Assembly: GCA_902384455.1 (NCBI GenBank)
Contig: CABMCB010000074.1
Coordinates: 1 to 25,930 of the forward strand
DNA from: an uncultured archaeon
Lineage (GTDB): Archaea; Altiarchaeota; Altiarchaeia; IMC4; SCGC-AAA252-I15
Length of the DNA: 25,930 bases
Direction: 5' to 3'
Positions 3,677 to 9,519 of the stretch are shown here, in pieces. The notes under the pieces were generated by a model that was not told the origin of the DNA, searched no databases, and saw nothing but the letters and a program-made list of their open reading frames with translations. Every line of letters starts with the position of its first letter. Position 1 is the stretch's first letter. Position numbers and translations under genes: made by a program.

Positions 3677-4963
3677 CTACCGTAAGTAACCCCAGGTGTG
3701 GAGTCTGTCGCTGTCTTCAGTCCAGCGTTCCCCAATGTCTAGGCGGTAGTATTTGTTGGGAAGTATCAGGTTGTTCACTCTGTTGTACGCCTGGTTTCTG
3801 GCCTGCTGCATAGTGTACCCGCATCCTACGACTGTGAGGACTACTCCGGCTCTGCCTGCCACGACCCATTCGTCATCGACAATTTTCACGTCTTCAATGT
3901 GGATTCCGTCCTTGTTGGGTTTCTTGAATATTATTACTGCCTCTTTGGAGTGAGTGTTGAACGCTTCGTCGTCGTCGAAGGGATACGGGGAGACGACTAC
4001 GCGCACTCCCACCTGAAATCCGCTTCGCGCCTTAAACGGCGTCTTCTCGCCCTTAGCAAGTTGATAGAGGAAGTCGCTGATTGGCGTCAACATACCGTCC
4101 GCTTGAATGAAAATCGTCGGATAACCGAACCGCGACGTGAACTCCAGCGGATACACTCCATTGCTGTTGACGATACAGTTGATGTCAATGTAGCCCACAT
4201 AATGCTCCTCCCTCAACTTAGGCTCCATCTTAAGCAAAGTAGCGTTAAACAAACTGTTAGGCGGACTCCAAAACATGCTCGTACCCATCTCACCAGTTGA
4301 AGGCCCGATGTTGCCCGGGAAAAGCTTCTTGTGCTCGAAGTTAACGTTAATGGGATGGACGAACTCGTGGCCGTTGAAGAACGCTCCCACAGCGACCTCT
4401 ACTCCGCTGATTCTTTTTTGCAGCTGGAATTCCTTCACCTTATCCGACCAAACTCTCTTGTAGTGCTCGAGCACCTCAACGACGTCCCGTCCTGTCTCGT
4501 CTTCGCCAACGAAAAGAAGCTGCTTCTTGTTCTGCGCTTCGCCGCTGGGCTTAATCACATACTTGTTGGGGTGATTCTGAACATAAGCGATTGCGTCATC
4601 AAACGAAGTGAAATTTTCCTGAGGAATAATTGCGATTCCAGCCTTCTTCAACTCCTGCTGGCCGAAGCCCCTGTCGTCCTCAAGCTTGTCCGTGTAAGGA
4701 GTTCCTCCGACAACAAGCTTCCCTTCATCACGCATTTTTTTCGCCTTAGTGCCTTCACCCAAAACGTCGTCAAAAACGATGACGTCGGCCCATGCGACTT
4801 CGTTTTCCCAGTTGTCTACTTTGGGCACGAAGCCGTCTGCGATGTCTCTTTGGTTCGGGTCTTGAATGTAGTATTTGACGTTGTGTCCTTCTTTGAGCAC
4901 CTGCCAGGCGGTGTCTCCAATAAGCGCGTCAAGTGAAATGAAAAGAAAATTTTTTGGCTCCAT
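3677..4963 (-). CDS. PurD-like ATP-grasp ligase (divergent phosphoribosylamine-glycine ligase family)
   Basis: YVIKPSG, GVEVAVG, HKKLFPGNIGPSTGEMG (cf. PurD GPNTGGMG), LEFTSRFGYP (cf. EFNxRFGDPE), YYRLDIG; lacks the N-terminal GxGGREHA. Confidence 0.8.
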   Translation of the reverse strand: MEPKNFLFISLDALIGDTAWQVLKEGHNVKYYIQDPNQRDIADGFVPKVDNWENEVAWADVIVFDDVLGEGTKAKKMRDEGKLVVGGTPYTDKLEDDRGFGQQELKKAGIAIIPQENFTSFDDAIAYVQNHPNKYVIKPSGEAQNKKQLLFVGEDETGRDVVEVLEHYKRVWSDKVKEFQLQKRISGVEVAVGAFFNGHEFVHPINVNFEHKKLFPGNIGPSTGEMGTSMFWSPPNSLFNATLLKMEPKLREEHYVGYIDINCIVNSNGVYPLEFTSRFGYPTIFIQADGMLTPISDFLYQLAKGEKTPFKARSGFQVGVRVVVSPYPFDDDEAFNTHSKEAVIIFKKPNKDGIHIEDVKIVDDEWVVAGRAGVVLTVVGCGYTMQQARNQAYNRVNNLILPNKYYRLDIGERWTEDSDRLHTWGYLR

Positions 4964-5525: not shown

Positions 5526-5561
5526 CAAACCACCACACACAAAAAGCATGCGGATGAAGAG

Positions 5562-5634
5562 CGCCCCAGCCGGAATTCGAATCCGGGTCACGGCCTCGAC
5601 AGGGCCGTATGATAGTCCGCTACACCACTGGGGC
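5562..5634 (-). tRNA. tRNA-Asp (GTC), no intron, CCA not encoded
   Basis: Reverse complement GCCCCAGTGGTGTAGCGGACTATCATACGGCCCTGTCGAGGCCGTGACCCGGATTCGAATTCCGGCTGGGGCG folds as a cloverleaf; anticodon arm CGGCC-CTGTCGA-GGCCG. Confidence 0.96.
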
Positions 5635-5723
5635 TTTTGTGCTCTTTGCTTTTTTTTTCCTCCGTTTTTGTTTTAACGGCCCGCGCCGTTTTTTTTTTGT
5701 TCGACGCGTTTTTGAGCCGTTTA

Positions 5724-5843
5724 TCCCGCCTCCCGGATTTGAACCGGGGATCTTCCGGTGGCCGCTGGTTATGCGGAAAACAGCTTATAGTACTGTTTGC
5801 CCAACTACAGCCAGACGCGATAACCAGGCTACGCCAAGGCGGG
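5724..5843 (-). tRNA. tRNA-Tyr (GTA) with a 45-nt intron at 37/38 (intron 5760..5804)
   Basis: Acceptor CCCGCCT/AGGCGGG-A (archaeal C1-G72), T-arm CCCGG-TTCAAAT-CCGGG; BHB: CTGT pairs with GCGG, 3-nt bulges AG|T and CC|A. Confidence 0.95.
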
Positions 5844-5870
5844 ATTAGCTTACAATATACACTTCGTCTC

Positions 5871-9196: not shown

Positions 9197-9204
9197 TTAT
9201 AAAG
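9197..9204 (+). promoter_or_regulatory. Probable TATA box of the tRNA-Met locus
   Basis: TTATAAAG, 34 nt before the first GCCGAAGTAGCTCAG copy (9239); no equally good box immediately before 9338. Confidence 0.45.
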
Positions 9205-9238
9205 TCTGCTTCCATCGTCCTATTCACCCAACAAAACC

Positions 9239-9352
9239 GCCGAAGTAGCTCAGGAACCTTTTTCTTTCTTTAGGAAAGAAAGAAAAACGTTCACGAAAAA
9301 GAAAGAAAACAACAAAACCAAAAAAACACATAAAAAAGCCGAAGTAGCTCAG
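9239..9352 (+). repeat. 15-bp direct repeat of the tRNA-Met 5' end flanking an 84-nt insert
   Basis: GCCGAAGTAGCTCAG at 9239-9253 and 9338-9352, identical. Confidence 0.95.
9254..9308 (+). repeat. Hairpin + mirror-repeat element, copy A (potential intrastrand triplex)
   Basis: TTTTTCTTTCTTT (9259-9271), loop AGG, AAAGAAAGAAAAA (9275-9287), spacer CGTTCACG, AAAAAGAAAGAAA (9296-9308). Confidence 0.85.
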
Positions 9353-9519
9353 TTGGTTAGAGCGCCAGACTCATAAGCAGAACCCCTTTTCTTTTTGAGA
9401 AAAAGAAAAGGTGTTTCATCCCCAAAAGAAAAAAACTTTTGGCGGGCGCAAGAAATGCTGGGACTTCAAGATAACGCTGAGTTATCTGGAGGCCGCGTGT
9501 TCAAGTCACGCCTTCGGCA
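9338..9519 (+). tRNA. Elongator tRNA-Met (CAT) with a 108-nt intron at 37/38 (intron 9376..9483)
   Basis: GCCGAAG/CTTCGGC-A acceptor, anticodon stem CCAGA/TCTGG, T-arm GCGTG-TTCAAGT-CACGC; BHB: CTCA pairs with TGAG, bulges TA|A and TT|A; G1-C72 and no triple G-C anticodon stem argue against initiator. Confidence 0.92.
9380..9433 (+). repeat. Hairpin + mirror-repeat element, copy B, inside the tRNA-Met intron
   Basis: CCTTTTCTTTTT (9385-9396), loop GAG, AAAAAGAAAAGG (9400-9411), spacer, AAAAGAAAAA (9424-9433). Confidence 0.85.

Follow-up and report, generated by a model that had tools for sequence, protein, structure and literature searches.

The origin of interrupted archaeal tRNA genes, whether split, permuted or carrying introns at odd positions, is an open question on which the locus described here may bear. 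A documented natural intermediate comes from Caldiarchaeum subterraneum, in which a fragment comprising positions 1-27 of tRNA-Thr and an intact copy of the gene flank a 1.87-kb insertion that encodes a recombinase, an arrangement that has been connected with the gain of introns and the splitting of genes (Sugahara et al. 2012, PMC3293823, in the portions of the article at hand). We describe a module far smaller than that 1.9-kb recombinase-bearing insertion, and non-coding, with the same signature of relic, insert and intact gene. It lies on a 25,930-nt contig of an uncultured member of the Altiarchaeota (GenBank CABMCB010000074.1, assembly GCA_902384455.1), which was analyzed over its full length and is referred to below as the window or as contig C74. 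A tRNA(CAU) gene in the window is preceded by an exact copy of its own first 15 nucleotides, and the two copies are separated by an 84-nt insert that begins with a structured repeat, which we call element E. The locus is probably the footprint of an insertion of E into the D-arm region of the tRNA gene, with duplication of the target.

The locus shares several features with the Caldiarchaeum tRNA-Thr gene: a 5' fragment lies upstream of the intact copy, the promoter-side fragment is dead, and a direct repeat surrounds the insert. Whereas the Caldiarchaeum insertion, in the part of the report available to us, is 1.87 kb long, carries a recombinase and is bounded by an att-site repeat, the insert in the window is 84 nt long, non-coding and structured, and has no recombinase. 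Unlike integrations of archaeal viruses, plasmids and insertion sequences into tRNA genes (SSV1 and pNOB8 types), the arrangement involves repeats whose lengths vary by locus, and it also occurs at tRNA 3' ends and at a protein gene. Like miniature inverted-repeat transposable elements (MITEs) and short interspersed nuclear elements (SINEs), E is short, non-coding and multicopy, and loci with and without the insert both exist. Unlike them, it is accompanied by a duplication of 10 to ~70 nt, which is not fixed and is far longer than usual; it has no terminal inverted repeats; its placement is extremely restricted, to the ends of tRNA and other genes; and no partner reverse transcriptase was found for it, nor a partner transposase in a search that covered the Y1 family. 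Related short sequences common to the introns of different tRNA genes were reportedly described in Thermoproteales by Fujishima and colleagues in 2010 and taken as a sign of intron mobility. Unlike such transposed introns, E also occupies trailers and leaders, and a leader copy is no intron, the duplicated 5' end removing the need for splicing.

In plan, E resembles the intrastrand triplex repeats of bacteria (PIT, BoxC and TMECO), around which the genetic context is more variable (Holder et al. 2015, PMC4666352, in the portions consulted). As read from its sequence, E likewise has two Watson-Crick arms and a third tract antiparallel to the purine arm. Unlike E, the bacterial repeats are described in those portions as intergenic in Enterobacteria and not tied to gene ends, and the words 'tRNA' and 'duplication' are absent from the main text as available; the comparison is one of plan, not of sequence. 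At the level of titles and abstracts, the literature on archaeal tRNA disruption, on triplex repeats and on tRNA introns of Altiarchaeota and DPANN yielded no description of E or of such mini-insertions.

The 15-mer, tRNA positions 1-15, covers the 5' strand of the acceptor stem, the 5' strand of the D-stem and the start of the D-loop. Exactly two + strand matches to it occur in the window, one at 9239-9253 and the other at 9338-9352, and none of 100 dinucleotide shuffles contained two or more. The second match starts a tRNA gene at 9338-9519 (Rfam tRNA, 57.5 bits), which according to ARAGORN has a CAU anticodon and an intron at the canonical position. On the + strand, exon 1 spans 9338-9375, with a splice point that is ambiguous by one A, the 108-nt intron spans 9376-9483, and exon 2 spans 9484-9519 and encodes no CCA. 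By eye, a bulge-helix-bulge can be made out at the intron ends: the anticodon region pairs with the 3' end of the intron over 4 bp, and a 3-nt bulge lies on either side of this helix. The tRNA is methionine-type; elongator tRNA-Met and tRNA-Ile2 both fit these data.

The 84 nt between the two 15-mers (9254-9337) are non-coding. Copy A of E occupies the first 55 nt (9254-9308, + strand; nhmmer E=2.2e-11 for 9253-9312, using a model built from copies in this genome), starting in sense orientation at the base directly after the upstream 15-mer, hereafter the relic. It opens with a 17-bp hairpin at 9254-9292, made up of a GAAC/GTTC outer stem (9254-9257/9289-9292) and a 13-bp pyrimidine/purine stem in which a pyrimidine arm (9259-9271) and a purine arm, R1 (9275-9287), enclose a 3-nt loop (9272-9274). 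A linker then leads to a mirror purine tract, R2 (9296-9308). Folded as DNA, the hairpin has a free energy of -12.4 kcal/mol (z -3.4), and none of 200 shuffles was equally stable. The insert closes with an A/C-rich linker at 9309-9337 on the + strand, which corresponds to -1 to -29 of the intact gene and is 76% A. No terminal inverted repeats bound the insert; its inverted repeat is internal (9254-9292), and its other end is the A-rich linker.

The promoter has stayed with the upstream copy. A TATA-like octamer read at 9197-9204 on the + strand lies 34 nt before the relic, within the range of 27-36 nt at which such boxes precede ordinary tRNA genes of this genome (flanks read by eye); no comparable box could be read before 9338 or within the insert. 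The last 10 nt of the native leader (9229-9238, + strand) are repeated exactly at 9310-9319, one base after E, and are followed there by 18 A-rich nt. This repeat emerged from a local alignment of the 45 nt before the relic with the 45 nt before the gene, the score of which was reached by 12 of 1000 shuffles. The original duplication may therefore have been at least 25 nt long, with the 18 A-rich nt added later. An initial annotation of the window, made from the sequence alone, had described the exact 15-bp repeat around an 84-nt insert with a hairpin at its start and an A-rich end, and had matched the TATA box to the first copy; all of this stands. Its further proposal, that an insertion duplicated the target and restored an intact tRNA gene, is supported by a promoter that remains upstream of the relic and a downstream copy that is complete. 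The length of the duplication needs amendment: the 15-mer pair is exact, and the repeated leader 10-mer means that the duplicated stretch is not strictly 15 bp.

In the event that we propose, a copy of E would have been placed in the D-arm region, with a duplication that took in no less than tRNA positions 1-15 and probably extended to the final 10 nt of the leader. The old promoter would now drive the dead 15-nt relic and then E, with the complete gene beginning 99 nt further on. The gene should thus be transcribed through a structured leader of ~110 nt, from which RNase P would release the tRNA by cleaving at 9338. RNase P RNA is present in the genome (a full-length match of 71.6 bits, below the Rfam cut-off of 84), and the long leader can therefore be removed.

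To place the locus in context, we surveyed the whole assembly (G000; 2.41 Mb in 103 contigs, 92% complete) and its relatives, which bear other G numbers; C denotes contigs, and L denotes loci fetched from relatives. At a threshold of E<1e-3, nhmmer found 11 E loci in G000, and all 11 are at tRNA genes: seven in trailers (0-6 nt after the tRNA 3' end), two at the start of canonical introns and two in leaders. Weaker hits comprised three at tRNA loci and two elsewhere. Each of the two leader copies, as well as a third weak one, has a duplicated piece of the tRNA 5' end directly ahead of it. Over 54 nt, copy A shares 92.6% identity with the copy in the trailer of a tRNA-Met gene on C11. The intron of the window's tRNA(CAU) gene holds a second copy, B, at 9379-9437 (nhmmer E=4.9e-10), which resembles a tRNA-Ser trailer. 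Parts of E also match at 96-100% identity in other genera (G002, G007, G010), and E is tied to tRNA genes throughout this archaeal order. Its near-identity in genera in which the protein encoded beside this tRNA is only 35-39% identical means that E is either constrained or spreading.

Copies of E follow a common plan: pyrimidine arm, 3-nt loop, complementary purine arm R1, a linker of 7-12 nt and the second purine tract R2. In copy A the 13-nt arms pair perfectly, and R2 scores 11 against the mirror image of R1 versus 10 against R1 read directly. Among 67 distinct arm combinations (79 copies from G000 and relatives), R2 fits the mirror of R1 better in 56, ties in 11 and fits the direct sequence better in none. 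Variants covary: a GAG variant in R1 is mirrored in R2 of L037, and an extra A is mirrored in L014, L044 and L051. Judged by its sequence, the R1/R2 mirror is the code of a purine-motif intrastrand triplex. The likeness of the pyrimidine arm to the T-rich trailers of tRNA genes that lack E suggested a plain terminator, which was rejected as a sole explanation because E sits in sense orientation within essential introns and leaders. On C94 the pyrimidine arm recurs behind a 3' relic, which prompted another idea, that E is a purine clamp inserting beside an existing T-rich terminator; this fails for the leader copies, as no T-tract pre-existed in the D-loop.

Duplicated gene ends recur within the genome. 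Contigs C4, C38 and C59 were left out of all tRNA counts; each holds a dense array of 25-34 intron-less tRNA genes, unlike the intron-bearing tRNA genes of archaea, and they are probably phage or bacterial DNA binned into G000. Five of the 49 remaining ARAGORN calls are preceded, 89-104 nt upstream, by an exact repeat of their initial 10-20 nt: tRNA-Met in the window (15 nt), the gene called at C71:59039-59134 (19 nt), tRNA-Gln (20 nt, or 25 nt with one mismatch) and tRNA-Thr (10 nt), both on C32, and tRNA-Asn on C20 (12 nt, then a decayed continuation). E follows the relic directly in three of these and other hairpin modules do so in two; each insert is 70-92 nt long and consists of one discrete structured module plus a linker. 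Flanks read by eye placed a TATA-like box at the normal distance before all five relics. The 3' end is affected in a corresponding way: for four of the 49 tRNAs a copy of it lies 50-229 nt downstream, and in three of these four E comes immediately after the live gene; two further tRNAs have a 3' copy ~600 nt downstream, one with a small open reading frame (ORF) in between. One of these ~600-nt inserts between a tRNA and its 3' copy (C71:58420-59039) holds an ORF of ~130 aa; the other (C71:49057-49678) has an E-like hairpin at its end, beside the relic.

The same architecture appears in relatives. Across 49 genomes in 26 genera of the order, the same 15-mer pair, 40-260 nt apart, was found for this tRNA in six genomes (five genera), and a reversed-pattern control gave none. 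The relics in these six are 15-23 nt long, and their inserts all differ: G008 has E-like hairpins, G005 and G007 have hairpins of other kinds, and G022 and G027 have a two-hairpin module with a further exon piece. For tRNA-Val, seven of 30 loci, four of which had <210 nt of upstream sequence at hand, carry a 5' relic (12-27 nt, located 90-240 nt upstream) and five carry a 3' relic, with relic states varying within one genus. In G002, a tRNA-Val relic of 27 nt (one mismatch) stands ahead of an E copy that is 96% identical to copy A and departs from it only in the loop. The correctness of the assembly in the window rests on this recurrence in independent assemblies.

The initial annotation had also asked for flanking direct repeats at other copies of the element, and these are present. 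We fetched 40 loci around E matches from the top of the match list (36 of type A and 4 of type B); the central copy lies in an intron in 11. Fourteen of the other 29 have a direct repeat of at least 10 nt whose left copy ends within a few nucleotides of E, as counted by hand from the table. Random positions gave such repeats at a rate of 4-6% (121 of 3000 in G000; 40 of 669 within the loci fetched). Carrying flanking repeats is a property of the element, and the duplication in the window is no one-off. The pattern extends to a protein gene: in L048 (G015:C135, 440-640), a relic made up of the start codon plus about 15 codons precedes E, and behind E stands the full gene, which we take to be GatE-like from our own reading of its N-terminus. 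The reading frame opened by this relic continues across E and terminates immediately past the true start codon. In another genome (L013, G040:C18), a copy of E at a contig end likewise follows the start of this GatE-like gene. The signature of relic, insert and intact gene is thus repeated at both ends of many tRNA genes and at one protein gene, across the whole order.

Loci without the insert exist as well. A gene for a 349-aa membrane protein upstream of the tRNA in the window also adjoins the orthologous tRNA in G006, G008, G022 and G027. In G006, which belongs to another genus and whose protein is 35% identical, 68 nt of promoter and leader precede the tRNA, with neither relic nor E; in G016 and G011 the promoter likewise lies directly before the tRNA, with no relic. 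The empty site that the initial annotation had wanted to see is therefore represented by the syntenic locus of G006. A scan of metagenome contigs with the 349-aa protein returned no confirmed relative.

The extent of the duplication varies from locus to locus. Exact tRNA parts measure 10, 12, 15, 19 or 20 nt in G000 and 12-27 nt in relatives. Downstream of E, the linker is similar to the native upstream region in C20 (5 of 1000 shuffles) and L040 (21 of 1000), and to the upstream coding sequence in L048 (0 of 1000); L030 is borderline (48 of 1000), and in eight of 18 cases the similarity is not significant. TATA-like boxes could be read at the same spacing in both copies of C20, L016, L040 and L043, which suggests that the duplication can take in the promoter. 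Total duplications thus range from ~10 to ~70 nt, made up of 10-27 nt of tRNA and up to ~45 nt of upstream flank, and inserts measure 70-160 nt in many loci. Variation in both insert size and duplication length is ill-suited to one site-specific enzyme, and variable duplications, together with missing terminal inverted repeats, argue against a transposase.

Several observations weigh against the proposed insertion. In the congeneric genomes G022 and G027, the exon-like parts of the relic are identical at 35 of 36 positions, compared with 20 of 28 in the linker and <80% in the inserted module, and relics carry the genus-specific bases of their own gene. Relics are thus kept better than a neutral remnant should be; gene conversion, selection (for a role in processing) or turnover at a very high rate could each account for this. 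At the syntenic locus of G008, where the flanking protein is 39% identical, the relic is 16 nt long versus 15 nt in G000 and is again followed by a pyrimidine/purine hairpin; so similar a junction means that the arrangement is old and maintained, or that insertion strongly prefers the site. E carries a sense-strand T5 tract that could terminate archaeal transcription before the gene, and no separate promoter is visible on reading the insert. When the whole precursor is folded with RNAfold, the 3' acceptor strand finds its partner in the relic and not in the true 5' end, and on this model the relic could be harmful, or used. The insert-free locus comes only from another genus, no strain-level allele without the insert having been seen. 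Finally, the searches for a responsible enzyme found neither a Y1 transposase nor Cas1 in the 92% complete genome. Much of this would be expected of a functional leader, in which relic and hairpin are maintained in the precursor, either as a decoy or outer acceptor strand that steers processing or as a T-tract attenuator that ends most transcripts after the relic. The conserved relics of G022 and G027 (with a linker at ~70% and inserted hairpins that change by compensatory pairs), the tracking of gene variants by genus, the near-identical junction in G000 and G008, the predicted fold and the 96-100% identity of E across genera with flanking proteins at 35-39% all favor such a role. We nevertheless think it unlikely: the arrangement is present in only six of 49 genomes for this tRNA and at seven of 30 tRNA-Val loci, relic end points are spread from position 10 to 27, several relics have decayed (C20; L043, 3 of 26; L083), the same arrangement stands at the start of a protein gene, and insert-free loci clearly function.

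The other explanations that we considered differ in how the two copies arose. Direct repeats of part of a tRNA around foreign DNA are a hallmark of archaeal integration (PMC3293823, in the portions at hand), and the initial annotation had raised the remnant of an integrase as one possibility: a virus or plasmid at an att site over the tRNA 5' end, later deleted down to 84 nt. The genome does have five matches to tyrosine recombinases, one of them ~400 nt from a tRNA-Ser gene, and ~600-nt inserts, one with an ORF, lie between two tRNAs and their 3' relics. None of the recombinases is in the window, however, the five 5' inserts are all 70-92 nt with a module and a linker each, which random deletion would not yield, and such discrete inserts speak against random remnants of integrated elements. 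E is also a host-wide tRNA-flanking repeat rather than virus DNA, and some duplications include diverged promoter sequence; given further the varying insert sizes (70-160 nt) and duplication lengths, we consider an integrase scar improbable. Tandem duplication of the whole tRNA unit (promoter, gene and trailer E), followed by loss of upstream positions 16-76, would explain why E, which normally lies directly behind tRNA 3' ends, follows the relic, and why a TATA-like box has the same spacing in both copies of C20, L040, L043 and L016. The deletion would then have had to stop exactly at the left edge of E in C74, C71, C20, L016, L040, L046 and L028, while its left end points are scattered through the D-arm; the linker in the window has no promoter, no intermediate with two full genes occurs among 11 tRNA-Met loci examined, and this course of events is quite improbable. 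Target-primed reverse transcription of the kind used by SINEs, which leaves an A-rich tail and a duplication of variable length, had been suggested at the outset from the 15-bp duplication together with the A-rich end; duplication lengths do vary, and one RVT_1 gene is present in the genome. An A-rich stretch is the normal composition of leaders here (positions -12 to -1 of 33 tRNA genes in G000 have a mean A of 0.45 and A+C of 0.75, and several are at least 67% A), E itself ends at R2, copies in trailers and introns have no A-rich tail, and relic cases such as L028 and L030 lack the stretch and end in ordinary sequence. E has no promoter of its own, and the sole RVT_1 match in the genome is a 349-aa ORF on C67, a 3.2-kb contig of uncertain origin. 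Retroposition therefore appears very improbable. The search for mobility enzymes that the initial annotation had recommended thus returned one reverse transcriptase and five tyrosine recombinases, and no match to Y1_Tnp in the 92% complete genome, other transposase families not being searched; a Cas1 profile likewise had no match in this genome. Non-canonical tRNA introns are common in some archaea, and excision of a 99-nt D-loop intron at 9254-9352, or use of the relic as an alternative first exon, would yield the same mature tRNA. No bulge-helix-bulge could be drawn for 9254-9352 on reading the sequence, and none appeared in the fold, so that this reading was rejected; the helix partner of the D-stem strand is in the downstream exon and not at the 3' end of the insert, and relic end points differ between genomes for the same tRNA. 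An intact gene follows in any case, splicing is not needed, and there is very little chance that such an intron explains the locus. Least probable of all is that the assembly went wrong at a repeat. E is multicopy in the genome, and contigs from relatives frequently break off at it (L002, L013, L040), but relic, E and linker span just 99 nt within a 25.9-kb contig, and the same architecture recurs in independent assemblies.

Insertion with duplication of the target thus remains the explanation that we favor. E would not have been moved by a classical transposase, integrase or reverse transcriptase; instead, it may have been copied between gene ends by recombination or replication-repair, through template switching at a structure-forming repeat or through homology-anchored illegitimate joining. 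Such a repair route would give long target duplications of variable length, and only the insertions that rebuild the gene would survive. The pattern points to a recombination process with long, variable target duplications. We know of no enzyme that makes such long duplications of variable length. The locus also suggests a testable two-step route to interrupted genes, in which a harmless insertion with duplication is followed by loss of one copy, giving an intron or a split gene. A broader and more doubtful possibility is that E and its sister hairpin modules are an undescribed kind of mobile DNA of Altiarchaeota and DPANN, without an enzyme or with an unknown one. They would home to the ends and loops of tRNA and other genes, insert with gene-rebuilding duplications of 15-70 bp, and feed tRNA introns, leaders, split genes and scattered tRNA fragments. 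On this view short-tract gene conversion would hold the relics identical to the live gene, or the relics would act as an additional acceptor strand when the precursor is processed.

A second module, comprising a closing stem and two hairpins, is inserted in relic loops and within E itself and is flanked by repeats of 2-5 nt. It was seen in the relic D-loop of L025 and L026, at ~58440-58500 of C71 in G000, and in the E linkers of copies on C19, C71 (tRNA-Lys), C94 and L005; its stems show compensatory changes between G022 and G027. Leader regions also hold 'minihelices', in which the 5' acceptor strand of the neighboring tRNA is followed by an inner hairpin and then by the 3' acceptor strand. 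These occur in G000 on C23 (~3830-3880) and C71 (~84340-84395), and upstream of tRNA-Met in L003, L004, L025 and L026. One minihelix is common to G022 and G027, with outer strands that are nearly unchanged, and G022 has another.

Contigs of relatives often end at or beside E (L002, L013, L040 and others), so that assemblies of such genomes probably leave tRNA loci that carry these repeats under-assembled. The tyrosine recombinase near a tRNA gene is at C78:3989-4483 (115.9 bits), ~400 nt from tRNA-Ser(TGA) at C78:4908-4998, and the pair is a candidate for a classical integrated element.

Elsewhere in the window, 3.5 kb upstream on the minus strand (5561-5844), are tRNA-Asp and an intron-bearing tRNA-Tyr; the divergent linkage of tRNA-Tyr and tRNA-Met is kept in G005, G006, G012 and G022. 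On C71 (49678-49907), a tRNA-Arg(CCT) gene has a 155-nt intron containing words that look like the C and D boxes of guide RNAs.

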